Of a stretch of 44,559 nt of DNA, positions 6,246 to 41,469 are shown piece by piece (within the stretch, counting starts at the first letter, position 1; each line of letters begins with the position of its first letter). The stretch is from Escherichia phage AAPEc6: the sequence record NC_047769.1. One strand, written 5' to 3'. The translations under genes and the position numbers were made by a program. The notes beneath the pieces are model-generated. The model was not told the origin of the DNA, did no database searches, and saw only the letters and a program-made list of their open reading frames with translations.

Positions 6246-8234
6246 ATGGCTATTATTCAGAATGTACCGTGTCCTGCCTGTCAAAAGAATGGACATGATA
6301 TTACTGGCAACCATCTCATGATATTTGATGATGGTGCTGGCTACTGTAATCGTGGACACTTTCATGATAATGGTAGACCTTACTATCACAAGCCGGAAGG
6401 TGGCATCGAGATAACCGAGTTACCTATTACTGGCAATATCAAATATACACCTTCTCAATTCAAAGAAATGGAGAAGGAAGGGAAGATAAGCGACCCTAAA
6501 TTACGTGCCATCGCACTAGGTGGTATGCGTATGAAAGACCGTTGGGAGGTCATGAATGAGCAAGAAAGGGCAGACCAAGAAGCAGAGTGGAAACTTGATG
6601 TTGAATGGTTCCTTACGCTTAAGCGTAAGAACCTTGTTTCCCGACACATTCGCGGCGACATTTGCGCATTGTATGATGTACGTGTCGGACACGATGAAGA
6701 GGGTAGAGTCTCGAGGCATTACTATCCACGCTTCGAGAAAGGTGAGCTAGTAGGCGCTAAGTGTCGCACATTACCTAAAGACTTTAAGTTTGGTCATTTA
6801 GGTAAACTCTTTGGTATGCAAGATCTTTTCGGGATGAATACTTTGTCTCACGTGTTAGACAAGGGAAGACGAAAGGATTGCTTGCTTATTGTGGGTGGGG
6901 AACTGGATGCGCTAGCAGCGCAGCAGATGCTCCTTGATTCTGCCAAGGGTACTAAGTGGGAAGGCCAACCTTACCATGTATGGTCTGTTAACAAAGGGGA
7001 GTCTTGCCTTGAAGAGATTGTGCAGAACCGTGAACACATCGCCCAATTCAAGAAGATTATTTGGGGCTTCGATGGGGATGAGGTAGGGCAGAAGCAGAAC
7101 CAGCAAGCGGCTCGCCTGTTTCCTGGCAAATCCTATATCCTTGAGTACCCTTCTGGCTGCAAAGATGCCAACAAGGCATTGATGGCTGGCAAGGCTAAAG
7201 AGTTTGTTGATGCATGGTTTAATGCCAAGCCATCTGATGAAGTCTTTGGTAGCCAGATTAAATCTATCGCATCTCAAAGGGATAAGCTCAAGGCTGCACG
7301 TCCAGAGCAAGGACTATCATGGCCTTGGCCTAAGCTGAACAAGGTAACGCTAGGTATTCGTAAGAACCAGCTTATCATTGTAGGTGCAGGGTCTGGTGTA
7401 GGTAAGACTGAGTTCCTTCGTGAAGTAGTTAAGCACCTCATTGAAGAACACGGTGAATCTGTGGGCATCATTTCTACAGAAGACCCGATGGTCAAGGTGT
7501 CCCGTGCTTTTATCGGCAAGTGGATTGATAAGCGTATTGAGTTACCTCCAACCAACGACCCGAAAGAAGACGGATACCGTGAGGTGTTCGACTATACCGA
7601 GGAAGAAGCTAACGCCGCCATTGATTATGTAGCTGATACAGGTAAGCTGTTTGTAGCTGACCTAGAGGGTGACTATTCGATGGAAAAGGTAGAGCAAACT
7701 TGCCTAGAGTTTGAGGCTATGGGTATTTCTAATATCATCATTGATAACTTAACGGGGATTAAATTAGATGAGCGTGCTTTTGGTGGGAAGGTTGGTGCAC
7801 TTGATGAATGCGTCAAGCGGATTGGTACTATCAAAGACCGACACCCGGTTACTATATTCCTTGTATCACACCTTACACGTCCTCCGGCAAACCGTACCCA
7901 ACACGAAGAAGGTGGCGAAGTTATCCTTTCTGACTTCCGAGGCTCAGGCGCTATCGGATTCTGGGCATCTTACGCCTTGGGGATTGAGCGTAATACAAGA
8001 GCTGAAACGCTTGACGAAAGGACTACCACGTACATCTCATGTGTCAAAGACCGCGACCAAGGTATCTACACTGGAACCAAGGTCATGCTTAAGGGTGACA
8101 TTCAAACCGGACGTTTAATGGAACCACAAGCCCGTACTAAGTCATTTGATACAGGTGAAGCAAGGCAACAAGAAGTACCAGATTTACCGGACACTATAGA
8201 AGAGACTAACTTCGATGAAGAAAGTGAGTTCTGA
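6246..8234 (+). CDS. DNA primase/helicase (T7 gp4-like)
   Basis: 662 aa; N-terminal zinc ribbon (CPAC...C..GHFH), Walker A GAGSGVGKT, acidic C-terminus ending ...FDEESEF. Confidence 0.95.
   Translation: MAIIQNVPCPACQKNGHDITGNHLMIFDDGAGYCNRGHFHDNGRPYYHKPEGGIEITELPITGNIKYTPSQFKEMEKEGKISDPKLRAIALGGMRMKDRWEVMNEQERADQEAEWKLDVEWFLTLKRKNLVSRHIRGDICALYDVRVGHDEEGRVSRHYYPRFEKGELVGAKCRTLPKDFKFGHLGKLFGMQDLFGMNTLSHVLDKGRRKDCLLIVGGELDALAAQQMLLDSAKGTKWEGQPYHVWSVNKGESCLEEIVQNREHIAQFKKIIWGFDGDEVGQKQNQQAARLFPGKSYILEYPSGCKDANKALMAGKAKEFVDAWFNAKPSDEVFGSQIKSIASQRDKLKAARPEQGLSWPWPKLNKVTLGIRKNQLIIVGAGSGVGKTEFLREVVKHLIEEHGESVGIISTEDPMVKVSRAFIGKWIDKRIELPPTNDPKEDGYREVFDYTEEEANAAIDYVADTGKLFVADLEGDYSMEKVEQTCLEFEAMGISNIIIDNLTGIKLDERAFGGKVGALDECVKRIGTIKDRHPVTIFLVSHLTRPPANRTQHEEGGEVILSDFRGSGAIGFWASYALGIERNTRAETLDERTTTYISCVKDRDQGIYTGTKVMLKGDIQTGRLMEPQARTKSFDTGEARQQEVPDLPDTIEETNFDEESEF
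6845..6860 (+). repeat. Palindrome variant GTCTCACGTGTTAGAC inside the primase-helicase CDS
   Basis: Read directly; one mismatch from the perfect palindrome. Confidence 0.6.
8182..8204 (+). promoter_or_regulatory. Phage promoter (ATTTACCGGACACTATAGAAGAG) embedded in the helicase C-terminal codons
   Basis: Near-consensus; encodes ...DLPDTIEET... Confidence 0.6.
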
Positions 8235-9541: not shown

Positions 9542-12088
9542 ATGAAGACTATTGATTGGAAGAAGGAGGCAGAAGGTCGTATCCTCGTGATGGATGCGGA
9601 AGCTAAAGGACTCCTTGACGCCATCCGATATGGACACCGTGAAGATGTGCATATCATTTGCTGCATGGACTTGCTTACTACCGAGGAGTTTCTCTTCTTT
9701 GACCCGTATGAGATGCGTGACCCTGAAGCAAGAGAACTCCTGAAGGAATGGGAAGGTCATCAAGATGGAACCTTGGTTGACGGTGTTAACTTCCTGAAGC
9801 ACTGTGAGGCTATTGTGTCGCAGAACTTCCTAGGATATGACGGTCTTCTCTTTGAGAAAGCATTCCCTGATATTTGGAAAGGCTTTAACTATACCGAGAA
9901 GCGCGGCAAGGGCAGACTCCGTGCTGACCTGTGTCCGGTGCGAGTCATGGATACGCTGGTGATGAGTCGCCTGTTAAACCCCGATAGACGCCTTCCTCCG
10001 CAAGCATATGCCAAAGGTATGGGTAACGTCGCCCCTCACTCAATTGAGGCGCACGGCATCCGTATAGGCCGCTATAAACCGGAGAACGAGGACTGGTCTA
10101 AACTAACTGACCACATGGTTCACCGTGTACGTGAGGACGTGGCGATTGGTCGTGACTTGTTCCTCTGGCTCTTTAACGGGGAATGGATGGAGCACAAACG
10201 CCGTGGCGTGAATAAACGCACTGGCCTAGGTATTGAGACAGCTTTCCACATGGAGTCCATTGTGGCGCTGGAGATGAGCCGTCAGGCCGAGCGTGGATTC
10301 CGTCTGGATATAGATAAAGCATTAGCACGATGCGAGGAATTGGACGCTAAGATTGATGAGACAGTCGCAGCGTTCCGTCCGCACATGCCTATGCGTATCA
10401 AGTCTAAACCTTTTAAACCGGAAGAAAAGAATGAAGTATGCCAACGCGCAAATGAGTATGGAGCTAGCAACAATATACCTACTGTCCTTGACCCCTCACA
10501 CTTTCTTCATGTCGAGAGACGAGGAGATCGCAAGACAGTATGGAGTGTCACTACTAAGTCTGGTGATTGGTCGGCTAGCGTCAAGAAAGACTTTCCTCAC
10601 CTTAGAGGAAACCGTAATGACACGCCAAGTATCAAGTGGATTGGCGCTTACTCGCCTGTTACTTTCGAAGAGATTCCCTTGGGTAACAGGGATACAGTTA
10701 AGCAAGTGCTCTATGATTATGGATGGAAGGGTGTTGAATTTAATGATACCGAGCAAGCGCATCTCGATGAGTACGGAGTATTACCCAAGCCTTGGAGTGG
10801 GAAGATAAATGAAAAGTCCCTTACTTTATGGCAAGAAAGAGCCGCACGTGAAGGTAAAACAGTCCCTGATTGGTGCTTGGGTATCGCTGCATGGTACATA
10901 CTCGTATCCCGTCGTGGTCAGATCCTCAACCGTGGTGACGTTGAAGCCTTCGACCAGAAGGGGGTGTGGCCTTCGCAAGCTGGTATACGAAAGTGTCGCG
11001 GCCTTGTACCTGTAGCATTTAACAAGGAGTTAGGAATCAATGCGCAGCAATACTACGAAAGGTACGGATGCTGGCCTACGTCAGACAAGGATGACGGAGA
11101 ATGGCGTGTGCCAGCTATTGCTATTAGTATTGGAACTTCTACGTTCCGTATGCGTCATCGTAACGTGGTTAATATTCCTGCCCGTGGTTTGTATCCTTTA
11201 CGTGATTTATTCATAGCCGGTAAAGGTAAGCTAATCCTTGGTTGTGATGGTGCTGGTCTTGAACTACGTGTACTGTCTCACTTCATGAATGACCCTGAAT
11301 ACCAAGATATTGTACTGCATGGTGACATTCACACCCATAATCAAATGAAGGCTGGTCTTCCTAAGCGTGACATGGCGAAGACATTTATATATGCCTTCCT
11401 ATATGGGTCTGGTATAGCTAACCTTGCAGCAGTATGTGGTGTTACTGAGGAAGAAATGGAGGAAGTTGTGGCAAGATTTGAGGTTGAACTACCATCTCTT
11501 GCACGTCTTCGTGAGAATGTTATCGCACAAGGTAACAAGTTTGGCTACCTACAAGCACCTGATGGTCATTGGGGTCGCATCCGTATGTCTGGTGGTGAAC
11601 TTAAAGAACACACTATGCTTAACGTACTACTCCAGATGACTGGTTCTCTGTGTATGAAATACGCATTGGTCAGAGCGTTTGCAGTGATGCGCAAGGAAGG
11701 TGTGGCCTTAGATAGCATGGGAAACCCTTGCGGTATAGCTAACGTGCACGATGAAATCCAGATGGAAGTCCCTGAAGATGAGGTCTTGTATCTCAACTAC
11801 GACTTGCCTTTCACCTTAGAAGGGTTCGAAACAGAGAAGGCTGCTGTGAAAGCAGTGTTCGATGCAGAGGAGAAACGTGTTCATGTGGATTCTGAAGGAC
11901 GTATGTGGTCTGCTGCAAATCTCGTTAGTGTTGATGCTGATGCTGGTGTACTTCATTGCCAGCGTCGTTATCACCGTGCAGGGCATATCATTGCCGACGC
12001 AATGACCTGGGCGGGTCAGTACCTGAAGATGCGTTGTCCGATGGCAGGTGAGTATAAGATTGGTGCAAGTTGGAAGGAAACACACTGA
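9542..12088 (+). CDS. DNA polymerase (family A, T7 gp5-like)
   Basis: N-terminal exonuclease motif ILVMDAEA, motif A GCDGAGLELRVL, motif C NVHDEIQ; ORF track begins at 9515. Confidence 0.95.
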   Translation: MKTIDWKKEAEGRILVMDAEAKGLLDAIRYGHREDVHIICCMDLLTTEEFLFFDPYEMRDPEARELLKEWEGHQDGTLVDGVNFLKHCEAIVSQNFLGYDGLLFEKAFPDIWKGFNYTEKRGKGRLRADLCPVRVMDTLVMSRLLNPDRRLPPQAYAKGMGNVAPHSIEAHGIRIGRYKPENEDWSKLTDHMVHRVREDVAIGRDLFLWLFNGEWMEHKRRGVNKRTGLGIETAFHMESIVALEMSRQAERGFRLDIDKALARCEELDAKIDETVAAFRPHMPMRIKSKPFKPEEKNEVCQRANEYGASNNIPTVLDPSHFLHVERRGDRKTVWSVTTKSGDWSASVKKDFPHLRGNRNDTPSIKWIGAYSPVTFEEIPLGNRDTVKQVLYDYGWKGVEFNDTEQAHLDEYGVLPKPWSGKINEKSLTLWQERAAREGKTVPDWCLGIAAWYILVSRRGQILNRGDVEAFDQKGVWPSQAGIRKCRGLVPVAFNKELGINAQQYYERYGCWPTSDKDDGEWRVPAIAISIGTSTFRMRHRNVVNIPARGLYPLRDLFIAGKGKLILGCDGAGLELRVLSHFMNDPEYQDIVLHGDIHTHNQMKAGLPKRDMAKTFIYAFLYGSGIANLAAVCGVTEEEMEEVVARFEVELPSLARLRENVIAQGNKFGYLQAPDGHWGRIRMSGGELKEHTMLNVLLQMTGSLCMKYALVRAFAVMRKEGVALDSMGNPCGIANVHDEIQMEVPEDEVLYLNYDLPFTLEGFETEKAAVKAVFDAEEKRVHVDSEGRMWSAANLVSVDADAGVLHCQRRYHRAGHIIADAMTWAGQYLKMRCPMAGEYKIGASWKETH

Positions 12089-33700: not shown

Positions 33701-34025
33701 GGCCTTTGGTGCAATGGGTATGATGAGTACAACTGCTGTATTTAGTCTAGGTGGAGATTTCTTAGGTGGCCTAGGTGTTCTACCTTCTGAGTTAGTACAA
33801 TCCCGTTATGAGGCTGGCTTTCAGACTAAGGGTTTGATAGACCAAATACCACTAGTAGGTGTTGGTCAAGATGCATATCGTTTAGCAGATTCTATAACTA
33901 AATACGCAGAGGGTGATACAGAAGGTGTAGATGTGGCACGTAGGGCTTTACGCTTAGTGCCTCTAGCTAATGTAATAGGAATCCAGAACGCATTGCGTTA
34001 TGGCTTAGATGAACTGGAGGATTAA
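30717..34025 (+). CDS. Large internal virion / ejection protein (gp16-like)
   Basis: 1102 aa; position and size. Confidence 0.75.
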   Translation: MEQDIKTNWAGYVQSTPEPFSIEAAPVSAPTIRQRNELQEQVLEAKADADILGAVGAAFQNEWLAFGGKRWYDRATADFTPQPDFEIQPEQREALRFKYGTDMMQTITEGVRSEDELNFRIQNADEDLERNKRIAQAGWVGSVATIGAAVLDPVGWVASIPTGGAAKVGLVGRAVRGAIAAGVSNAAIESVLVQGDMTRDLDDIMVALGSGMAMGGIIGAVARGRATKLSEQGDDRAASIVRSADAGDRYVRAVADDSIGAMRVKGEEVLTEGAFDISSKGEDLLKTLQREGNAIDMTPRRWAGTLSALGTVVHSSQDASVRGLGARLFESPQGLGMQKASASLMQNTNLNRLKSADMNRFNDGFDLWLKENNINPVAGHTNSHYVQQYNEKVWEAVRIGMDESTPKSIRMAAEGQQAMYREALALRQRSGEAGFEKVKADDKYMPDIFDSMKARRQFSMHDKEDIIELFSRAYQNGSRKVPKEVADDIARAQVNRVADATLTGQLSFEKAMSGQTKAEYEALMRKAGFSDEEIEKMVEALDNKETRDNISNRAKMSLGLDVTQEYNGIRMRDFMNTNVEELTDNYMKEAAGGAALARQGFSTYQAALNAIDLVERNARNAAKDTKAHAQFEAESAKIRQSEPDYKKAQEKIEELKKRLKLKEKDEAAGLAIDEEIRQMREGLRLIMGKSIDSNPQDLSTKMLRRGRDITGVLRLGQMGFAQLGELANFMGEFGIAATTMALGKQFRFTSKALRNGDGFFRDKNLAEVERMVGYIGEDNWLTTKGARPDEFGDVTTVRGMMAHFDQSMNSIRRAQTNLSLFRMAQGSLERMTNRQIALSFIDHLEGKKIIPQKKLEELGLTQEFMTNLQKHYDANSKGSGLLGFDTMPYAMGETLANAIRRKSGLIIQRNFIGDEGIWMNKALGKTFAQLKSFSLVSGEKQFGRGIRHDKIGLAKKTAFGFALGSMVYAAKAYVNSIGREDQDEYLEEKLSPKGLAFGAMGMMSTTAVFSLGGDFLGGLGVLPSELVQSRYEAGFQTKGLIDQIPLVGVGQDAYRLADSITKYAEGDTEGVDVARRALRLVPLANVIGIQNALRYGLDELED

Positions 34026-34987
34026 TGAGTTATACTTTCACAGAACATATAGCCAACGGTACGCAAGTAACCTATCCCTTTAGCTTTGCTGGTAGGGATA
34101 AAGGTTATCTTCGTGCCTCAGATGTGATAGTGGAGTCTCTTCAAGGTAACACTTGGATTGAGGTTACATCTGGCTGGCAACTAACTGGCACGCACCAGAT
34201 TACTTTTGATGTAGCACCAGTTGCAGGTTTGAAGTTCCGTATTCGAAGGGAAGTACAAAAGGAGTATCCATACGCTGAGTTTGACCGTGGTGTTACCTTG
34301 GATATGAAGTCTTTAAATGGTTCTTTCATTCATATACTGGAGATTACACAGGAGTTACTTGACGGGTTTTATCCAGAAGGATACTTCATTAAACAGAATG
34401 TAAGCTGGGGCGGCAATAAGATTACTGATTTGGCTGATGGCACAAATCCTGGAGATGCAGTAAATAAAGGGCAGCTTGATGCCATCGACAAGAAGCATAC
34501 AGATTGGAACGCCAAACAGGACATTGAGATTGCTGGCCTTAAGGCTGGTATGACTTCTGGTATTGCGCACAGAACTGTTCCTTGGTACACGATAGCCCAA
34601 GGTGGTGAGATTTCCGTAAAACCACCTTATGAATTTCAAGATGCACTAGTTTTCCTTAATGGGGTATTGCAGCACCAAATTGTAGGCGCATACTCTATAA
34701 GCAACAACACTATCACTTTCGCAGAGCCGCTTGTGGCGGGTACAGAGGTGTATGTGCTGATTGGTAGTCGTGTGGCTACATCTGAACCTAATATTCAGTT
34801 GGAGTTGAACTTTGACTTAGTAGAAGGCCAACAAGTAGTACAGATTGGCTCTGCATTTAAGTACATTGAGGTCTACCTTGATGGATTATTACAACCTAAA
34901 CTTGCTTATCAGGTAGACGGTGACATTGTTACTTTCTCAGAAAGAGTACCAGAATGCCGGATGACTGCTAAGATTATCACAGCATAA
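34025..34987 (+). CDS. Tail fiber adaptor (T7 gp17 N-terminal domain-like)
   Basis: N-terminus YTFTEHIANGTQVTYPFSFAGRDKGYLRASDVIV resembles the T7 tail fiber N-terminal anchoring domain; only 320 aa. Confidence 0.7.
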   Translation: MSYTFTEHIANGTQVTYPFSFAGRDKGYLRASDVIVESLQGNTWIEVTSGWQLTGTHQITFDVAPVAGLKFRIRREVQKEYPYAEFDRGVTLDMKSLNGSFIHILEITQELLDGFYPEGYFIKQNVSWGGNKITDLADGTNPGDAVNKGQLDAIDKKHTDWNAKQDIEIAGLKAGMTSGIAHRTVPWYTIAQGGEISVKPPYEFQDALVFLNGVLQHQIVGAYSISNNTITFAEPLVAGTEVYVLIGSRVATSEPNIQLELNFDLVEGQQVVQIGSAFKYIEVYLDGLLQPKLAYQVDGDIVTFSERVPECRMTAKIITA

Positions 34988-34996
34988 GGAGGTGGG

Positions 34997-35191
34997 ATGA
35001 TTAACTCCGAACTGGTAGATAGTGGTGTGAAGCTTGCGCCACCTGCACTCGTATCAGGTGGGTACTTCCTCGGTATCAGTTGGGATAATTGGGTGTTAAT
35101 AGCAACATTCATTTATACCGTGTTGCAAATTGGGGACTGGTTTTATAATAAGTTCAAGATTTGGAGGGAGAAGCGTGAGCGTACACAATAA
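34997..35191 (+). CDS. Class II holin (T7 gp17.5-like)
   Basis: ISWDNWVLIATFIYTVLQIG resembles T7 holin LSLNEWFYVAAIAYTVVQIG; AAGGAGG RBS. Confidence 0.75.
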   Translation: MINSELVDSGVKLAPPALVSGGYFLGISWDNWVLIATFIYTVLQIGDWFYNKFKIWREKRERTQ

Positions 35192-35474
35192 ACATGCAGC
35201 TACAGAGGACGAGGTTGGCATTCTGCATGGTGCTATTACCAAAATCTTCAATAAGAAAGCACAGGCAATACTGGACACTATAGAAGAAGACCCTGATGCA
35301 GCATTACATTTAGTGTCTGGTAAGGATATTGGTGCGATGTGTAAGTGGGTTCTTGATAACGGCATTACCGCCACACCTGCTGCACAGCAGGAAGAGTCCA
35401 AGTTATCTAAGCGCCTCAAGGCTATCCGAGAGGCATCCAGTGGTAAAATAATTCAATTTACAAAAGAGGAGTAA
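35175..35474 (+). CDS. Candidate terminase small subunit (GTG start)
   Basis: No in-frame ATG near the 5' end; GTG at 35175 after GGAGGGAG; position between holin and large terminase. Confidence 0.45.
   Translation: MSVHNKHAATEDEVGILHGAITKIFNKKAQAILDTIEEDPDAALHLVSGKDIGAMCKWVLDNGITATPAAQQEESKLSKRLKAIREASSGKIIQFTKEE
35268..35288 (+). promoter_or_regulatory. Promoter-like sequence (ATACTGGACACTATAGAAGAA) inside the small-terminase ORF
   Basis: Core matches the consensus; the upstream ATTT is degenerate. Confidence 0.4.
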
Positions 35475-35475
35475 T

Positions 35476-35919
35476 ATGCATAGATGGTGTGAATCTCAAG
35501 GTTATACCATCTTACCTTCTGGTGTCATCCTTTCAAAGGGTGGCACCCCTCTCAAGCCTTTCAAGGTGGGTAGGGGTTATTTAGCAGTTAAAATTAAAAA
35601 TAAAGAAGGTAAATGGCGTAATGTCTATGTTCATCACTTAGTGGCTTATAAGTATTTACCTAAAACCGATAATGAAGTAAACCACAAAGACGGCAATAAG
35701 CACAACAATGATGTTAGCAACTTGGAGTGGGTGACAAGAAGCGAGAATAACTACTTAAAATGCAATGGAAATGATAGGAGTGCCTTAAATAATTACTTAG
35801 CAAGATTAAAAGATTGCTTCTTGCAGGGTAAGGGTGTAGCAGAAACCGCTAGGCTTACTGGTAAAAGTGAACCAAGGGTTTCTTCTCTCTTTAAGGAGTG
35901 GCGAAATGGCAAAGGCTAG
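35476..35919 (+). CDS. HNH homing endonuclease
   Basis: Motif VNHKDGNKHNNDVSNLEWVTRSENN; A-rich codon usage; GAGGAG RBS. Confidence 0.85.
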   Translation: MHRWCESQGYTILPSGVILSKGGTPLKPFKVGRGYLAVKIKNKEGKWRNVYVHHLVAYKYLPKTDNEVNHKDGNKHNNDVSNLEWVTRSENNYLKCNGNDRSALNNYLARLKDCFLQGKGVAETARLTGKSEPRVSSLFKEWRNGKG

Positions 35920-37804
35920 AGAATCACAGGCAGAGGCATTAAAGCGGTGGGAAAACCTTAAAGAACTACAAGACACTTTTAAGTATACAGCGGAAGGTTT
36001 GCTTCTCTTTGCAGATACAGTTATTCATAACTTAATTGCAGGCAACCCTCATCTGATTCGTATGCAGGCGGATATCTTGAAGTTCCTATTTTACGGACAC
36101 AAGTACCGCCTCATCGAAGCGCCTCGTGGTATCGCTAAGACAACACTATCAGCAATCTATACGGTATTCCGTATTATTCATGAACCGCATAAGCGTATCA
36201 TGGTTGTGTCCCAAAACGCCAAGCGAGCAGAGGAAATCGCAGGTTGGGTAGTTAAAATCTTCCGTGGCTTAGACTTTCTTGAGTTTATGCTGCCGGATAT
36301 CTACGCTGGGGACCGTGCATCCGTTAAGGCGTTTGAGATTCATTACACCCTACGTGGTAGTGATAAGTCTCCTTCTGTATCCTGTTACTCAATCGAAGCA
36401 GGTATGCAGGGCGCTCGTGCTGATATTATTCTAGCGGATGACGTAGAGTCGATGCAGAATGCTCGTACGGCAGCGGGCCGTGCCTTGCTTGAGGAGCTGA
36501 CTAAGGAGTTTGAATCTATCAACCAGTTTGGGGATATCATTTACCTTGGTACACCTCAGAACGTAAACTCTATCTACAACAACCTACCTGCTCGTGGTTA
36601 CTCTGTTCGTATCTGGACTGCGCGTTACCCTTCAGTAGAGCAAGAGCAATGTTATGGCGACTTCCTTGCACCTATGATTGTTCAAGATATGAAGGACAAC
36701 CCAGCACTTCGCTCAGGGTACGGGTTGGATGGTAATAGTGGTGCACCTTGTGCCCCTGAAATGTATGATGATGAAGTCCTGATTGAGAAGGAAATCTCTC
36801 AGGGTGCTGCTAAGTTCCAGCTTCAGTTCATGCTTAACACTCGCATGATGGATGCTGACAGATACCCATTACGCCTGAACAATCTAATCTTCACCTCGTT
36901 TGGTACAGAGGAAGTCCCTGTGATGCCTACGTGGAGTAATGATTCCATAAACATCATTGGTGATGCACCTAAGTATGGTAACAAGCCTACGGATTTCATG
37001 TACAGACCTGTAGCTCGCCCATATGAATGGGGTGCTGTCTCCCGCAAGATTATGTATATTGACCCTGCGGGTGGTGGTAAGAATGGAGATGAGACGGGTG
37101 TAGCCATCGTATTCCTGCACGGCACATTCATTTATGTGTATCAGTGCTTTGGTGTACCTGGCGGATACCGAGAGTCGTCCCTGAATCGCATTGTGCAGGC
37201 CGCAAAGCAGGCGGGTGTTAAAGAGGTATTCATTGAGAAGAACTTTGGTCATGGCGCGTTTGAGGCGGTAATTAAGCCGTACTTTGAACGAGAGTGGCCT
37301 GTAACTCTGGAAGAGGATTACGCCACCGGACAGAAAGAGTTGCGTATCATTGAGACGCTGGAGCCGCTCATGGCAGCCCATAGGCTTATCTTCAATGCAG
37401 AGATGGTGAAGTCAGACTTTGAGTCGGTACAGCACTATCCGCTTGAACTACGCATGTCCTACAGTCTTTTCAATCAAATGTCGAACATAACGATTGAGAA
37501 GAACAGCCTCCGGCATGATGACCGCCTAGACGCCCTGTATGGCGCTATACGGCAATTAACTTCTCAGATAGACTATGACGAGGTTACACGGATTAATCGC
37601 CTCAGAGCGCAGGAGATGCGCGATTACATCCATGCTATGAACACACCTCATCTACGCAGGGCAATGCTATATGGAGATTACGGTACTGAGCGAAGAGTGA
37701 CCAACACTTCCGTAGCGATGCAGCAGCGAGTTTACGGGCAGAACTACCGAAATAAATCGGCAAGCAGAAATACACTTTCTGCAAGGATTTCAAGGACTTA
37801 TTAA
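35906..37804 (+). CDS. Terminase large subunit (gp19-like)
   Basis: ATPase and nuclease segments (APRGIAKTT, ADIILADDVE, IYLGTPQN); ATG at 35906 after AAGGAG (ORF track 35867). Confidence 0.93.
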   Translation: MAKARESQAEALKRWENLKELQDTFKYTAEGLLLFADTVIHNLIAGNPHLIRMQADILKFLFYGHKYRLIEAPRGIAKTTLSAIYTVFRIIHEPHKRIMVVSQNAKRAEEIAGWVVKIFRGLDFLEFMLPDIYAGDRASVKAFEIHYTLRGSDKSPSVSCYSIEAGMQGARADIILADDVESMQNARTAAGRALLEELTKEFESINQFGDIIYLGTPQNVNSIYNNLPARGYSVRIWTARYPSVEQEQCYGDFLAPMIVQDMKDNPALRSGYGLDGNSGAPCAPEMYDDEVLIEKEISQGAAKFQLQFMLNTRMMDADRYPLRLNNLIFTSFGTEEVPVMPTWSNDSINIIGDAPKYGNKPTDFMYRPVARPYEWGAVSRKIMYIDPAGGGKNGDETGVAIVFLHGTFIYVYQCFGVPGGYRESSLNRIVQAAKQAGVKEVFIEKNFGHGAFEAVIKPYFEREWPVTLEEDYATGQKELRIIETLEPLMAAHRLIFNAEMVKSDFESVQHYPLELRMSYSLFNQMSNITIEKNSLRHDDRLDALYGAIRQLTSQIDYDEVTRINRLRAQEMRDYIHAMNTPHLRRAMLYGDYGTERRVTNTSVAMQQRVYGQNYRNKSASRNTLSARISRTY

Positions 37805-37826
37805 TTACTGGACACTATAGAAGGAA
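37803..37826 (+). promoter_or_regulatory. Phage promoter (AATTACTGGACACTATAGAAGGAA)
   Basis: Near-consensus; overlaps the terminase stop codon. Confidence 0.75.
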
Positions 37827-37839
37827 GGCCCAGATAATA

Positions 37840-37885
37840 AGAGAAATAATAGGTAATATAGGTTAACCTAGGTTATATAGGTATG
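37840..37885 (+). other. AT-rich block of four phased TAGGT(A/T)A repeats; candidate secondary origin or regulatory site
   Basis: ATAGGTAAT, ATAGGTTAA, CTAGGTTAT, ATAGGTATG at about 9-10 bp spacing; followed by hairpin GGGTGTAC-TCCT-GTACACCC (37895-37914). Confidence 0.4.
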
Positions 37886-37960
37886 CCTTAGTATGGGTGT
37901 ACTCCTGTACACCCTATTCCTTACTACCTTACTATATTTACATAATAGGAGAGAGAGACA

Positions 37961-38239
37961 ATGGCTAATGATTATAGTAGTCAACCATTAACAGGTAAGT
38001 CTAAGCGAAAGCAGGTACAACCTGTAAGTGAAGCACTAATGCTTCCGGTAATCTCAAAAGAGGAAGCTAGTAAGAAAATCAATGTTATTAATGATGCCAC
38101 CAAATCAGGTAAACAGAAAGGGGCCATGGTGTGCCTTGAAGTGGAAGATGGTGTATTGAAGATTGCTATCGCGGTTGATGGCAAAGAAGATTCAGAGTGG
38201 AAGTTAGTGACAGTGGAACCCACTGTTACCCCAGCTTAA
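37961..38239 (+). CDS. Small protein, paralog A (92 aa)
   Basis: Shares the core SGKQKGAMV-LE...L-IA-A...W...VTPA with the next ORF. Confidence 0.6.
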   Translation: MANDYSSQPLTGKSKRKQVQPVSEALMLPVISKEEASKKINVINDATKSGKQKGAMVCLEVEDGVLKIAIAVDGKEDSEWKLVTVEPTVTPA

Positions 38240-38256
38240 GAGAAGGAGGAGGTTAC

Positions 38257-38550
38257 ATGGCTAAATATGGTACTACAGGTTCTGTTACTGGTCAGGCTTT
38301 TCGAGTAAAAGCAGTACAAACTATTGCAACGGCAATCCCGATGCCTGTTGTTAAAGAAGCAGACCTTAAGAGTAAAGATCACCCTATCAACATCAAACAC
38401 CTGTCAGGTAAGCAGAAAGGTGCAATGGTTGCTCTTGAGAAAGATGACACAACCTTACATATTGCTGTTGCACGTGGTAGTGAACCCACAGACTCTTGGG
38501 ATGTAACTGGTATGGAATCGCTCGCTGTCACTCCAGCAGGTGGAGAATAA
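38257..38550 (+). CDS. Small protein, paralog B (97 aa)
   Basis: AAGGAGGAGG RBS; paralogous to 37961..38239. Confidence 0.6.
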   Translation: MAKYGTTGSVTGQAFRVKAVQTIATAIPMPVVKEADLKSKDHPINIKHLSGKQKGAMVALEKDDTTLHIAVARGSEPTDSWDVTGMESLAVTPAGGE

Positions 38551-38894
38551 TGCTTAACAAATACTTCAAGCGTAAAGAGTTCGCTTGCCGTTGTGGGTGC
38601 GGTACATCCACTGTTGATGCTGAATTACTACAGGTAGTCACAGATGTGCGTGAGCACTTTGGTTCTCCTGTAGTTATCACTTCGGGGCATCGCTGTGCTA
38701 AGCACAATGCCAATGTAGGTGGCGCTAAGAACTCCATGCATCTTACTGGTAAGGCTGCTGACATTAAAGTGTCTGGCATATTACCTTCTGAAGTGCATAA
38801 GTATCTTACTAGCAAATACCAAGGCAAGTATGGTATCGGTAAGTATAACTCCTTCACTCACATCGATGTACGGGATGGTTGTGCGCGATGGTAA
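38550..38894 (+). CDS. Endolysin, peptidase M15-type zinc peptidoglycan hydrolase
   Basis: Motifs SGHRCAKHN, NSMHLTGKAADI, HID (H-x-D / H zinc-ligand pattern); TAATG overlap with the upstream ORF. Confidence 0.75.
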   Translation: MLNKYFKRKEFACRCGCGTSTVDAELLQVVTDVREHFGSPVVITSGHRCAKHNANVGGAKNSMHLTGKAADIKVSGILPSEVHKYLTSKYQGKYGIGKYNSFTHIDVRDGCARW

Positions 38895-39002
38895 GATGTG
38901 TTGAATGGTGTGAGCGTATGGTTGCCCAAGCTGCCGAGGATGGCAACTATGATGACTGGAAGAACTACTCTGACTTGTTAGCTCAATGGAAAGGGAGATG
39001 CA

Positions 39003-39152
39003 ATGAAAAAGCTGTTTAAGTCTAAGAAGGTTGTAGGTGCACTGGTTGCACTTGTTATTGCTCTTGTTTCTGTAGGTCTTGGTGTAGACCTTGGCTCTGG
39101 CACGGAATCCTCTGTGACAGATGTGGTCTGCCAAGTGATTACCTGTGAATAA
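39003..39152 (+). CDS. Small membrane protein (49 aa, basic N-terminus plus TM segment)
   Basis: GGGAGA RBS; MKKLFKSKKVVGALVALVIALVSVGLG. Confidence 0.4.
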   Translation: MKKLFKSKKVVGALVALVIALVSVGLGVDLGSGTESSVTDVVCQVITCE

Positions 39153-39366
39153 GTTTCTAGAAGTGCTGGCAGGTCTTATTGGCCTGCTTGTCTCTGCTAA
39201 GAAGAAACAAGAAGAGAAGGAGGCACAAAGTGAAGCGAATCATGTTAGTGACAATCCTGCTGATTGGTTCGCTGACCACTTCCGGGTGTCAGCAGGCGTT
39301 ACCAGAGAAAGCAATGGTGAAACCTCTGAGGCCGACGCTGACGGAAGTTTACGAGGTAGACGATAA
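39145..39366 (+). CDS. Candidate i-spanin (N-terminal TM then charged periplasmic domain); GTG start
   Basis: ORF track; TM segment FLEVLAGLIGLLVSA; overlaps the o-spanin candidate in another frame. Confidence 0.4.
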   Translation: MNKFLEVLAGLIGLLVSAKKKQEEKEAQSEANHVSDNPADWFADHFRVSAGVTRESNGETSEADADGSLRGRR

Positions 39367-39439
39367 GGTCTGCTTTAGTAAGCCTGACGCTACAAAATTA
39401 GGTTTGTATATTCTTTCGCTAGAACGCGGATATAATTAA
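39242..39439 (+). CDS. Candidate o-spanin lipoprotein (Rz1-like)
   Basis: MLVTILLIGSLTTSGC: signal peptide with lipobox-like TSGC; overlapping architecture. Confidence 0.45.
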   Translation: MLVTILLIGSLTTSGCQQALPEKAMVKPLRPTLTEVYEVDDKVCFSKPDATKLGLYILSLERGYN

Positions 39440-39468
39440 TACATAGCTTTATGTATCAGTGTCTTACG

Positions 39469-39492
39469 ATTTACTGGACACTATAGAAGAGG
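39469..39492 (+). promoter_or_regulatory. Phage promoter (ATTTACTGGACACTATAGAAGAGG) driving the tailspike genes
   Basis: Exact consensus; preceded by GTCTTACGAT half-site relic. Confidence 0.85.
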
Positions 39493-39570
39493 TAAGATAG
39501 CGCCGTTCTTTTGAGCGGCCTATTACTAGCCAATCTTCATAGGGAGGGTTGGAAAGTAATAGGAGATAGC

Positions 39571-41469
39571 ATGGCTAAATTAACCAAACCTAATACTGAA
39601 GGAATCTTGCATAAAGGACAATCTTTGTATGAGTACCTTGATGAGAGAGTTTTAACATCAAAGCCGTTTGGTGCTGCAGGTGACGCCACTACTGATGATA
39701 CGGAGGTTATAGCTGCTTCATTAAACTCTCAGAAAGCTGTCACAGTCTCAGATGGTGTATTCTCTAGCTCTGGTATTAATAGTAATTACTGTAACTTAGA
39801 CGGTAGGGGTAGTGGCGTGCTAAGTCACCGTTCCAGTACAGGTAACTACTTAGTATTTAACAATCTACGTGCAGGTCGTTTAAGTAATATTACGGTAGAA
39901 AGTAATAAGGCGACTGATACAACTCAGGGACAGCAGGTGTCTCTTGCTGGTGGAAGTGATGTTACTGTAAGTGACGTTAACTTCTCAAACGTTAAAGGTA
40001 CTGGTTTCAGTTTAATCGCATACCCTAATGATGCGCCACCTGATGGACTTATGATTAAAGGCATTCGAGGTAGCTATTCAGGCTATGCTACTAATAAGGC
40101 AGCAGGATGCGTACTTGCTGACTCCTCAGTTAACTCCCTCATAGATAACGTCATTGCTAAGAACTACCCTCAGTTCGGAGCAGTAGAGTTGAAAGGTACA
40201 GCCAGTTACAACATAGTCAGTAATGTTATAGGGGCAGATTGCCAGCATGTAACTTACAACGGCACTGAAGGGCCAATAGCTCCTTCTAATAACCTTATCA
40301 AGGGGATGATGGCTAATAACCCTAAGTATGCAGCGGTTGTTGCAGGCAAAGGAAGTACGAACTTAATCTCAGACGTGCTCGTAGATTACTCAACTTCTGA
40401 TGCTAGGCAGGCTCATGGTGTTACAGTAGAGGGTTCTGATAACGTCATAAATAATGTACTTATGTCAGGATGTGATGGTACTAACTCTTTAGGGCAAGGG
40501 CAGACTGCTACAATTGCACGCTTTATAGGTACAGCTAATAACAACTATGCGTCTGTATTTCCTAGCTACAGTGCTACAGGTGTTATTACTTTCGAATCCG
40601 GCTCTACCCGTAACTTCGTAGAGGTAAAGCACCCTGGCAGGAGAAACGACCTTCTCAGTTCTGCTAGTACTATTGACGGTGCAGCTACTATTGACGGCAC
40701 TAGTAATAGTAACGTAGTGCACGCACCTGCCTTAGGGCAGTACATAGGTAGTATGTCAGGTAGGTTCGAATGGCGGATTAAGTCCATGTCACTCCCTTCA
40801 GGCGTTCTTACTTCTGCTGATAAGTACAGAATGCTTGGAGATGGTGCTGTGTCATTAGCTGTAGGTGGGGGCACTTCTTCTCAAGTTCGCCTATTTACTT
40901 CTGATGGTACTTCTCGGGCAGTGTCCCTCACCAACGGTAACGTGCGTCTTTCTACCAGTAGCACAGGCTTTTTGCAGTTAGGTGCTGATGCAATGACCCC
41001 AGACAGTACTGGTACATACGCATTAGGTTCCGCCAGCCGAGCATGGTCTGGCGGTTTTACTCAAGCAGCATTCACTGTTACCTCAGATGCTCGGTGTAAA
41101 ACAGAACCTCTTACTATCTCAGATGCCTTACTGGATGCTTGGTCTGAAGTTGACTTTGTGCAGTTTCAGTATTTGGATCGTGTTGAGGAGAAGGGTGCAG
41201 ACTCAGCTAGATGGCACTTCGGTATCATCGCTCAGCGAGCTAAGGAGGCTTTCGAACGTCACGGTATAGATGCACATCGCTATGGCTTCTTGTGCTTCGA
41301 CAGTTGGGATGATGTATACGAGGAAGATGCCAATGGCTCTCGTAAACTGATTACACCAGCAGGTTCCCGCTACGGTATTCGTTACGAGGAAGTACTGATA
41401 TTAGAGGCTGCGTTGATGCGGCGGACTATTAAGCGTATGCAGGAAGCACTAGCTTCCCTGCCTAAGTAA
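39571..41469 (+). CDS. Tailspike capsule depolymerase, beta-helix lyase-like, with C-terminal intramolecular chaperone domain
   Basis: 632 aa from the ATG at 39571 (AGGAGA RBS); repetitive N/V/G/S beta-helix-like coils; C-terminal TSDARCK...HFGIIAQ shared with the next tailspike. Confidence 0.8.
   Translation: MAKLTKPNTEGILHKGQSLYEYLDERVLTSKPFGAAGDATTDDTEVIAASLNSQKAVTVSDGVFSSSGINSNYCNLDGRGSGVLSHRSSTGNYLVFNNLRAGRLSNITVESNKATDTTQGQQVSLAGGSDVTVSDVNFSNVKGTGFSLIAYPNDAPPDGLMIKGIRGSYSGYATNKAAGCVLADSSVNSLIDNVIAKNYPQFGAVELKGTASYNIVSNVIGADCQHVTYNGTEGPIAPSNNLIKGMMANNPKYAAVVAGKGSTNLISDVLVDYSTSDARQAHGVTVEGSDNVINNVLMSGCDGTNSLGQGQTATIARFIGTANNNYASVFPSYSATGVITFESGSTRNFVEVKHPGRRNDLLSSASTIDGAATIDGTSNSNVVHAPALGQYIGSMSGRFEWRIKSMSLPSGVLTSADKYRMLGDGAVSLAVGGGTSSQVRLFTSDGTSRAVSLTNGNVRLSTSSTGFLQLGADAMTPDSTGTYALGSASRAWSGGFTQAAFTVTSDARCKTEPLTISDALLDAWSEVDFVQFQYLDRVEEKGADSARWHFGIIAQRAKEAFERHGIDAHRYGFLCFDSWDDVYEEDANGSRKLITPAGSRYGIRYEEVLILEAALMRRTIKRMQEALASLPK

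Follow-up and report, generated by a model that had tools for sequence, protein, structure and literature searches.

Lysis genes of AAPEc6

We analyzed the lysis genes of Escherichia phage AAPEc6 (sequence record NC_047769.1). "The window" below means the whole stretch of DNA that was analyzed, 44,559 nucleotides (nt). Our main subjects are the last two genes of the late operon, which overlap each other and encode a small conserved protein of 73 amino acids (aa), here called p73, and an outer membrane lipoprotein. An original prediction had proposed that the window carries a split lysis system and that these two products are the inner membrane component (i-spanin) and the outer membrane component (o-spanin) of a spanin pair. 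The lysis genes and candidate lysis genes are as follows.

34997-35191, + strand: holin, class II, T7 gp17.5 family, 64 aa (PF10746, E = 1.5e-27; phrog_920 "holin," E = 5.8e-28)
38550-38894, + strand: endolysin, M15 zinc peptidase, 114 aa (PF08291, Peptidase_M15_3, E = 6.7e-34; phrog_894 "endolysin")
38888-39019, + strand: p43, small soluble protein, 43 aa (phrog_1312, E = 2e-18); overlaps the endolysin stop and the p49 start
39003-39152, + strand: p49, single-pass membrane protein, 49 aa (phrog_4712)
39145-39366, + strand: p73, conserved small protein, 73 aa (phrog_9219, E = 6.5e-33); the i-spanin candidate of the original prediction
39217-39223, + strand: Shine-Dalgarno (SD) sequence AAGGAGG of the lipoprotein gene, within the p73 coding sequence, 6 nt before the GTG at 39230
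39230-39439, + strand: predicted outer membrane lipoprotein, 69 aa (50 aa when mature, beginning at Cys20; phrog_8971 "Rz-like spanin," E = 4.5e-39); candidate o-spanin

All of the open reading frames (ORFs) named in the original prediction were found, both in the ORF list and in the sequence, and the lysis system is split as proposed: the holin gene is at the T7-syntenic site, and the endolysin and the outer membrane candidates are in a separate late operon. The distance from the holin to the endolysin group had been given as about 3.5 kb; the endolysin start is 3.36 kb past the holin stop. In the late operon the genes for the endolysin, p43, p49, p73, and the lipoprotein follow one another, and each gene overlaps the next.

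The region from 34900 to 39600 is 97.5% identical to Escherichia phage vB-Eco-KMB47 (KMB47) and 98.4% identical to phage K1-5 over the 89% of it that aligns. The window is from a K1-5-like Vectrevirus; KMB47 and K1-5 both belong to that genus (Molineuxvirinae, Autographiviridae), and their annotations match. The whole lysis gene set is already present in published genomes and is the standard apparatus of K1-5/SP6-type podophages (Molineuxvirinae). The split positions of the holin, endolysin, Rz, and Rz1 genes in SP6-like phages were described in 2015 (PMC4640515).

Phages K1-5, K1E, LL11, and SP6 share the genes at 74 to 98% DNA identity. Their records include the holin, p49, the 69-aa lipoprotein, and the M15 endolysin as annotated genes but mostly pass over p73 and p43; where p73 is listed, it may be called "hypothetical." The records also conflict with one another: p49 is a "holin" in RefSeq and a "putative I-spanin" in LL11, and the KMB47 record calls p73 and omits the lipoprotein. 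In the updated SP6 record (AY288927.2; locus L005, 1026-1223 and 1090-1299), gene 48, the p73 homolog, is labeled "o-spanin," the p49 homolog is labeled "i-spanin," and the real lipoprotein ORF is unannotated.

Evidence that p73 is a gene

The GTG start of p73 sits within the sequence that encodes the Cys-Glu-stop end of p49, TGTGAATAA. For comparison we used 40 loci that bear the lipoprotein, taken from GenBank phages and IMG/VR; they represent Vectrevirus, Zindervirus, and Klebsiella and Proteus relatives and give 35 distinct sequences. The p73 frame is open in every one of the 35 (61 to 73 aa), with the GTG start at the same place in each. In PP99-like phages the start is instead an ATG in a TAATG junction.

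Ratios of nonsynonymous to synonymous polymorphism (pN/pS) were calculated by pooling Nei-Gojobori counts over sequence pairs, without phylogenetic correction. Codons 4 to 25 of p73 are free of overlap with other genes; here pN/pS was 0.47 in the p73 frame versus 1.05 and 2.40 in the other two frames, which held 24 and 43 stop codons. The p73 values for this part ranged from 0.27 to 0.47, and across the segments tested the other two frames contained 24 to 145 stop codons. Diversity in the same part was 0.148, 0.023, and 0.266 at codon positions 1, 2, and 3, respectively; the third position was the highest. Where p73 overlaps the signal peptide of the lipoprotein, pN/pS was 0.31 in the p73 frame versus 1.01 in the lipoprotein frame for all clades, and 0.14 versus 0.72 for Vectrevirus and Zindervirus only. 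The variable sites in this overlap are second codon positions of the lipoprotein and wobble positions of p73. The tail of p73 (residues 49 to 73, about the last 24 to 25 codons) had a pN/pS of 1.00 in its own frame, i.e., it is neutral. By these ratios, residues 1 to 48 are the only constrained, and presumably the only functional, part of p73.

The SD sequence of the lipoprotein gene is encoded by p73 codons Lys25-Glu26-Ala27 (39217-39229), and part of the conservation of the "KEAQ" residues of p73 may be due to this downstream ribosome-binding site rather than to the protein.

A 73-codon ORF might not be a gene at all: chance could keep its frame open, as could constraints on the lipoprotein gene that it overlaps and on the ribosome-binding site of that gene. 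The GTG start of p73 has no recognizable SD sequence, p73 is unannotated in K1-5, K1E, and LL11, and its tail evolves neutrally, all of which would fit a nongene. Against this stand the frame that is open in all 35 sequences next to the many stops in the other two frames, the high third-position diversity and the low pN/pS outside the overlap, the lower pN/pS of the p73 frame than of the lipoprotein frame within the signal-peptide overlap, the ATG start and TAATG junction of the PP99-like phages, and the conservation of p73 at E = 1e-9 to 1e-26 in unrelated cassettes (see below). We regard the nongene explanation as effectively refuted and extremely improbable, and the comparisons argue that p73 is a real gene.

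Homologs of p73 fell into 113 clusters, all but one of them 53 to 77 aa long (the exception is 103 aa). All came from similar small contexts, and none had a Pfam domain. Longer relatives resembling canonical i-spanins were sought among these 113 clusters and given up on the same sizes and the same lack of a Pfam domain.

The lipoprotein gene

The original prediction started the lipoprotein at the ATG at 39242. That start is less likely than the GTG at 39230, which we prefer because it lies 6 nt after AAGGAGG, gives the signal peptide a basic Lys-Arg n-region, and was also chosen for K1-5 in a published census of spanins (Kongari et al. 2018, PMC6139136). The supplement of the census quotes the same ribosome-binding site for K1E (PMC6139136). 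The prediction was to be abandoned if 39242-39439 lacked a lipobox or signal peptide; both are present, the lipobox with either start. Read by pattern, the signal peptide and lipobox are MKRIMLVTILLIGSLTTSG followed by Cys-Gln-Gln, with the lipobox T-S-G-C and its Cys codon at 39287-39289. The +2 residue is Gln, not Asp, which predicts sorting to the outer membrane.

As had been proposed, the lipoprotein gene begins inside p73 and runs past its stop: it is in the +1 frame and ends at 39439, 73 nt after the p73 stop. It overlaps p73 and is not embedded in it. The embedded prototype is the Rz/Rz1 pair of phage lambda. Our pair is arranged like LysB/LysC of P2 and the overlapped Rz/Rz1-type pairs, in which the lipoprotein gene likewise starts at +1 inside the upstream gene and ends beyond it; as here, such pairs stand at the distal end of the lysis cassette, and the lipoprotein has a periplasmic Cys.

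Residues S18, G19, and C20 of the lipoprotein were invariant in an alignment of 10 sequences, and C20, P32, C48, L57, Y60, L64, and E65 were invariant in 55 sequences. Codons 46 to 69, which encode the C-terminal domain, had a pN/pS of 0.11. The AlphaFold2 (AF2) model had a predicted local distance difference test score (pLDDT) of 81 overall and more than 90 in the domain; it consists of a signal helix, a linker (19 aa) to about residue 39, a beta-hairpin at 40-49 that ends at Cys48, and a helix at 51-65. A Foldseek search of PDB with this model gave nothing below E = 5. At least one periplasmic Cys for an intermolecular disulfide is found in about 96% of two-component spanin systems (PMC6139136). 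In the window, the lipoprotein has Cys48 (invariant in the 55 sequences) and p49 has a CX4C motif; p73 has none.

A lipobox scan of the + strand of the window found no other convincing candidate, and with it no canonical spanin pair elsewhere. The only other match was an ORF at 12070/12088-12204 (38 to 44 aa), which begins MDRFDIVCLFSTFFLIFLMLAC and has a hydrophobic N terminus and a lipobox-like MLAC.

Ways of disrupting the outer membrane without a canonical Rz/Rz1 pair are reportedly provided by gp28 of phiKT, the "disruptin" (said to have been described by Holt et al. in 2021), and by gp11 of T1, a unimolecular spanin (u-spanin). The disruptin is a cationic peptide, whereas p73 is net acidic. 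T1 gp11 has a C-terminal transmembrane segment, which the lipoprotein of the window lacks. A unimolecular spanin of the T1 gp11 type was ruled out: the lipoprotein ends in KLGLYILSLERGYN, its C-terminal hydrophobic run is 8 residues, and this part is modeled as an amphipathic helix on the beta-hairpin.

p73 and the lipoprotein travel together

We compared the presence and absence of the late-operon genes across distant phages, the most informative of our comparisons. p73 accompanied the lipoprotein in 40 of 40 loci, with a fixed start offset of 85 nt. The window has this spacing of 85 nt between the two starts as well, with the lipoprotein in the +1 frame, and its pair comes directly after the endolysin, p43, and p49. 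This adjacency and architecture are those of a two-component spanin, and the geometry is the same at every homologous locus.

The pair is not tied to one endolysin. PP99 and Erwinia VL73-like phages have a different, nonorthologous endolysin and keep p49, p73, the lipoprotein, and mostly p43; the endolysin of one phage of the PP99/KBNP1315-like kind, KBNP1315, is reported for its own phage to be of the signal-anchor-release (SAR) type and to act without a holin (PMC4640515). On metagenomic contigs, all of them short, homologs of p73 and the lipoprotein were found behind DUF5675, VanY/M15_4, and GH108 endolysins, with no detectable p49 or p43. In these contexts hmmsearch detected p73 at E = 1.7e-26 to 6.5e-9 and the lipoprotein at E = 2e-17 to 7e-12; p49 scored no better than 0.085. 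In all of them the lipoprotein starts 76 to 85 nt past the p73 start and ends beyond the p73 stop, and the pair stands at the end of an unrelated lysis cassette (L076, 1344-1632; L077, 2102-2378; L079, 2257-2545; L081, 1701-1986). In each metagenomic cassette a membrane protein of 55 to 67 aa, different from p49, directly precedes p73 and overlaps its start.

The pair is also lost as a unit. The Klebsiella phages K44PH129C1, pKP-M186-2.1, and HY are missing exactly p73 and the lipoprotein (L070, 2644-2800) and keep the endolysin, p43, and p49; on both flanks they are more than 90% identical to the pair-bearing phage cp4. The 43.9-kb genome of K44PH129C1, the sole complete genome of a deletion variant that was scanned, has no plausible lipobox ORF.

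Conversely, p49 occurs in the absence of the pair. In phages phD2B and PP1 a p49 homolog without Cys is present, and p43, p73, and this lipoprotein are all absent. In ICP3-type Vibrio T7-like phages the slot of the T7 Rz/Rz1 genes (18.5/18.7), between genes 18 and 19, holds a p49 homolog together with a lipoprotein, and there is no p73-like ORF. A scan of IMG/VR with a p49 profile yielded only two additional loci.

From these presence/absence data we conclude that p73 and the lipoprotein are, as far as the comparisons reach, one mobile evolutionary module that stands behind five endolysin types and is lost as a whole, and that p49 is an independent family found with or without the module.

Two observations concern the small lipoproteins of the other groups. 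Immediately before the endolysin, the phD2B/PP1-type phages encode an unannotated mini-lipoprotein of 38 aa, about 21 aa of which would remain in the mature form (L014, 1085-1201; L015, 1070-1186; L071, 2019-2135). It resembles the N-terminal part of the 65-aa lipoprotein of ICP3/VP4 (L042, 1608-1805; BLASTP E = 1e-5), and in both groups the mini-lipoprotein or the 65-aa lipoprotein co-occurs with a p49 homolog.

Which inner membrane partner?

Published assignments of the i-spanin differ. The census lists K1-5, K1E, and SP6 as having "separated" two-component spanins, with a 49-aa i-spanin, a 69-aa o-spanin, and a 77-nt gap, and its o-spanin family "K1-5, K1E, SP6, UAB_Phi78" includes our lipoprotein (PMC6139136). 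UAB_Phi78 is listed as "overlapped," with a 69-aa i-spanin, which is the p73 homolog, and a 61-aa o-spanin of the same family (PMC6139136). The census is thus internally inconsistent, because the p73 homolog is the i-spanin in UAB_Phi78 and p49 is the i-spanin in K1-5, K1E, and SP6. UAB_Phi78 has the same two families and the same +1 overlap as the window, and its entry is the one published assignment we found that matches the original prediction; that assignment consists of rows in a supplementary table, with neither comparative nor experimental support.

In the census model (Kongari et al. 2018; also the LL11 annotation), p49 is the i-spanin, the lipoprotein is the o-spanin, and p73 is an unrelated protein lying between and over them. 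p49 does have properties that suit this role. Its basic N terminus, MKKLFKSKK, is followed by a charge-free hydrophobic segment of 19 residues with a hydrophobicity of 2.76 on a crude version of the Kyte-Doolittle (KD) scale. This is the only strong transmembrane segment among the candidates, and it suggests an N-in/C-out topology. The C-terminal tail of about 21 aa ends in the conserved CX4C. The original prediction called the 49-aa ORF a membrane protein, which this N-terminal segment bears out, and was to be given up if the ORF were not translated; an SD sequence, GGGAG (38993-38997), and purifying selection (pN/pS = 0.33) argue that it is translated. In addition to having been published, the assignment to p49 gains from the ICP3-type homologs, which adjoin small lipoproteins in the T7 Rz/Rz1 slot, and from the co-occurrence of p49 homologs with the related mini-lipoprotein in phD2B/PP1. 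The 47-aa membrane protein of ICP3/VP4 is a p49 homolog (hmmsearch E = 2e-22), C-terminal CX4C included, and it is also "too small" in the census; the 65-aa lipoprotein beside it is of a different family, related to the phD2B/PP1 mini-lipoprotein.

Four lines of evidence oppose the census model. Only about 21 residues of p49 lie past the membrane segment, and the census curators themselves commented "Too small?" and "only 20 pp residues" and called the 71-residue total of the K1-5 pair "Too short" (PMC6139136). p49 is intact in the Klebsiella phages that lack the lipoprotein, where complete K44PH129C1 has no lipobox ORF. In four metagenomic cassette contexts the lipoprotein occurs with p73 and without a detectable p49. 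Last, the same census makes the p73 homolog the i-spanin of UAB_Phi78. We consider the census model unlikely. Of the overlapping spanin pair originally predicted, then, the pairing of 39145-39366 with the lipoprotein is favored by the comparative data over the pairing with p49; p73 itself is only a candidate for an i-spanin in the defined sense, having a conserved Glu6, across its family no run of at least 17 residues free of Asp, Glu, Lys, and Arg, and a neutral tail.

Two comparisons involving p49 came to nothing. We had considered that the p49 cysteines track the K1-5-type lipoprotein, and dropped this because the ICP3 homolog has CX4C and the lipoprotein beside it, of another family, has no Cys. 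Outside the family, the best matches to p49 were the small membrane proteins found ahead of p73 in the metagenomic cassettes, but they were not significant (E = 0.085 to 1.2).

On another reading, the lipoprotein (with p73) would serve to exclude superinfection or to mask a receptor, in the manner of T5 Llp or Cor. It is small, targeted to the outer membrane, and encoded immediately upstream of the tailspike genes; some natural Klebsiella phages dispense with it; and only at the lipobox could it be matched to the T7 spanins. On the other side, in all contexts found it follows an endolysin and a small membrane protein and overlaps the stop of the upstream gene, including in metagenomic cassettes that no tailspike gene follows. 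Its place in a late operon behind a promoter for the phage RNA polymerase fits late expression, and exclusion might be expected earlier. The +1 overlap with the upstream gene is, moreover, a hallmark of Rz/Rz1-type pairs (PMC6139136). Exclusion is therefore, in our judgment, very unlikely.

p73 compared with known i-spanins

Canonical i-spanins are about 100 to 150 aa long (lambda Rz, 153; T7 gp18.5, 143) and have a clear transmembrane segment, two coiled-coil helices, and a C terminus that binds the o-spanin. In p73, by contrast, constraint covers about 48 residues, the helix is amphipathic and partly charged, Cys is absent, the C terminus is neutral, and we could find no Pfam homology. Searches of Pfam with p43, p49, p73, and the lipoprotein gave no match at E ≤ 1, and in PHROGs the four proteins matched lineage-specific families only. 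The hhalign comparison of p73 with T7 gp18.5 found nothing (probability, 0.2%), and that of the lipoprotein with T7 gp18.7 aligned 20 columns only, the signal peptide and lipobox. A resemblance of LPEPPMV/LPEKAMV to the T7 spanins was also dropped, as hhalign gave no homology beyond the lipobox.

Residues 2 to 31 of p73 are helical, the first 18 being hydrophobic or amphipathic, and are followed by the invariant-rich motif SDNPADWFADHFRV (residues 34 to 47). The AF2 model of p73 (mean pLDDT, 61) has a helix at 2-31 and a short helix at 38-45 over ADWFADHF, with the remainder disordered. In the window p73 has a 12-residue charge-free run after Glu6, and its 15-residue core has a KD value of 2.21, close, on this crude scale, to the core of T7 gp18.5, so that this p73 may yet be anchored in the membrane.

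Several observations weigh against p73 being the inner component of a spanin. In a set of 100 full-length representatives, 95% have a charged residue at position 6 (Glu in 86), 48% at position 13, 46% at position 16, and 53% at position 17. Within residues 2 to 18, the median length of the longest stretch without Asp, Glu, Lys, or Arg is 9.5 residues; only 2 of the 100 attain 13, and none attains 17. KKK directly follows the helix. p73 has no cysteines, and its approximately 25 C-terminal codons are neutral, whereas canonical spanin subunits bind via their C termini. The UAB_Phi78 homolog has, in the census, no predicted coiled coil and 17% predicted helix (PMC6139136). The parts that would span the periplasm are short and show no coiled coil of the canonical kind: p73 has about 30 constrained residues past its helix, and the lipoprotein has a 19-aa linker and a domain of about 30 aa, which together look too short to bridge the periplasm. 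More generally, the ICP3-type arrangement and the doubts of the census curators described above count against the pairing we favor; p73 and the lipoprotein may be lost and transferred together partly because their genes overlap physically rather than because they share a function; and the M15 protein of SP6-like phages has been taken as the endolysin "without biochemical evidence" (PMC4837284). In the literature on K1-5, K1E, SP6, and their relatives, we found no experimental test of these small lysis genes. For the transmembrane segment of p73 the evidence leans towards the negative, while p49 clearly has one; judged by its residue pattern, the N-terminal helix of p73 is not a canonical transmembrane segment.

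These features allow a noncanonical reading, in which p73 is a soluble or peripheral protein with an amphipathic helix that enters the periplasm only when the holin opens the membrane, or acts from the membrane surface, and that breaks the outer membrane together with the prepositioned lipoprotein but with no periplasm-spanning complex. In its favor are the polar stripe at positions 6, 9/10, 13, and 16/17, which carries Lys, Arg, Asp, or Glu in the metagenomic homologs (e.g., MLKTAIKILRILLGLVQKW), the restriction of constraint to residues 1 to 48, the AF2 model, in which a disordered tail follows a long and a short helix, and the combined constrained lengths, which look too short for a bridge. 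The endolysin has no export signal, so a holin that releases folded cytoplasmic protein is required in any case. Some facts point the other way. The PP99/KBNP1315-like phages combine the pair with an endolysin reported to be of the SAR type and independent of the holin (PMC4640515), so that release through large holes is not assured there. The 15-residue core of the p73 of the window is close in hydrophobicity to that of the known i-spanin T7 gp18.5; the census treats the UAB_Phi78 homolog as a membrane-anchored i-spanin with 48 of its 69 residues in the periplasm (PMC6139136); and the mechanism has no known precedent. We think it improbable that p73 acts in this way.

Proposed role of the p73/lipoprotein pair

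The reading that we favor, and hold with moderate confidence, is that the window carries the standard K1-5/SP6-type lysis apparatus and that p73 and the lipoprotein are probably a minimal overlapped spanin-like pair for the outer membrane step. The outer membrane function is suggested by the position and architecture of the module. At the end of infection the holin would permeabilize the inner membrane, and the endolysin would then reach the murein and cut its peptide cross-links. The p73/lipoprotein pair, acting as a spanin-like two-gene module, would then remove the outer membrane. The lipoprotein would be anchored in the outer membrane via Cys20, probably as a dimer joined through Cys48, and would hold its small beta-hairpin/helix domain on the 19-residue linker. 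The inner component would be p73, working by means of its hydrophobic N-terminal helix and of the conserved motif NPxDWFxDHF. p43 and p49 may be conserved accessory proteins of the lysis cassette.

Phages of the K1-5, K1E, and SP6 type are in wide use as models and are candidates for therapy against capsulated strains of E. coli, Salmonella, and Klebsiella, and their records are inconsistent. If p73 is anchored in the membrane, no overlapped spanin would be smaller than this pair, and K1-5, K1E, and SP6 would need a corrected census entry; if p73 has no membrane anchor, the spanin model would need extension. The yield of the analysis is a correction of the annotation, the recognition of a mobile module of two genes whose inner component is atypical, and natural deletion variants that can serve as controls: the Klebsiella variants would be natural "spanin-less" members of an otherwise spanin-bearing group.

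It is also conceivable, but doubtful, that p73 and the lipoprotein represent a distinct and widespread class of outer membrane disruption, in which an amphipathic-helix protein of about 48 residues meets a prepositioned lipoprotein only at, or through, holin triggering. Phages of the SP6/K1-5 type and unrelated phages with DUF5675, VanY, and GH108 endolysins would then breach the outer membrane without a periplasm-spanning complex, and the p49 family, with its mini-lipoproteins in the ICP3 and PP1 types, would be a further, undescribed small lysis component.

Holin and endolysin

The original prediction placed a T7-like holin between the tail adaptor and small terminase genes, and this is where it lies: the tail fibre/adaptor gene is 5' and the small terminase gene (terS) is 3'. 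The protein matched Phage_holin_2_2 (PF10746) with 95.5 bits (cutoff, 25.4) over profile positions 1 to 61 of 61, and the same gene is called holin in the K1-5, LL11, and KMB47 records. In T7 the homologous holin, gp17.5, is at the same place, after the tail fibre gene and before terS.

The endolysin had been described as an M15 zinc peptidase rather than the T7 amidase. It matched Peptidase_M15_3 with 116.7 bits (cutoff, 23.2) and, locally, the Streptomyces zinc D-Ala-D-Ala carboxypeptidase 1LBU (E = 1e-4), in agreement with that description. An H-x6-D...H pattern read from the translation gives the putative zinc ligands H64, D71, and H104. The gene has an SD sequence, GGAG, at 38542-38545, and the protein has neither a signal nor a SAR segment. 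The roles of the holin and the endolysin are assigned by family membership, and their mode of action would be that of their families.

T7 likewise has scattered lysis genes rather than one cassette. Its spanin genes are embedded and lie between terS and the large terminase gene (terL), a slot that is occupied in the window by an HNH endonuclease gene; its endolysin (gp3.5) is an amidase from the DNA metabolism (class II) region, whereas that of the window is an M15 peptidase in the late operon.

p43

The ATG of p43 lies inside the ATGGTAA stop context of the endolysin gene. The original prediction noted an ORF of 43 aa with Cys at 38888-39019; the cysteines are Cys4 and Cys8, which form a CX3C motif, and Cys38. 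In 14 distinct Vectrevirus sequences, pN/pS was 0.17 in the p43 frame versus about 1 in the other frames. Nonsense codons were present in 2 of the 14, at codon 7 in LL11 (Trp to stop; about 5055-5183 of L001) and at codon 21 in one IMG/VR genome (about 1159-1287 of L018). Unless these are sequencing errors, p43 seems to be dispensable in at least some isolates. Homologs of p43 also stand behind nonorthologous endolysins in PP99-like phages.

Neighboring genes and the late operon

The other genes and promoters of the region are as follows.

34025-34987: upstream ORF, 320 aa, with a T7 tail fibre N-terminal domain
35175-35474: terS (PF11123); overlaps the 3' end of the holin gene
35476-35919: HNH endonuclease, 147 aa (PF13392, HNH_3, homing type); between terS and terL
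35906-37804: terL; its start is overlapped by the HNH endonuclease gene
37805-37825, + strand: K1-5/SP6-type promoter for the phage RNA polymerase, 2 mismatches to TTACTGGACACTATAGAAGAG; directly after the terL stop
37961-38239 and 38257-38550: two paralogous small genes, 92 and 97 aa; the first genes of the late operon
39471-39491, + strand: phage promoter, perfect consensus (0 mismatches); upstream of the tailspike gene

The HNH endonuclease gene is in KMB47 and VEc3 and not in K1-5 or LL11; about 10% of the query did not align to K1-5 and LL11 because this gene is absent there.

The window contains eight promoter matches with 0 to 2 mismatches to the consensus (at 8184, 12373, 13142, 14288, 22486, 35268, 37805, and 39471), versus 0 expected by chance. 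The match at 35268 falls within terS. By their positions, the promoters at 37805 and 39471 bracket 37961-39439 as what is predicted to be a single late transcription unit. An inverted repeat, TACATA-GCTT-TATGTA, lies at 39441-39456, between the lipoprotein stop and the 39471 promoter; it could be a processing or termination signal. A similar repeat is in the same place in the Klebsiella deletion variants (L070).

The 92- and 97-aa paralogs carry the label "acetyl-CoA acetyltransferase" (phrog_2725), which has no Pfam support and looks like a propagated misannotation. In the Klebsiella relatives (L008, L013) the second paralog is 178 aa long and has a C-terminal extension. By eye this extension looks Ig-like, which would fit a virion surface or decoration protein.

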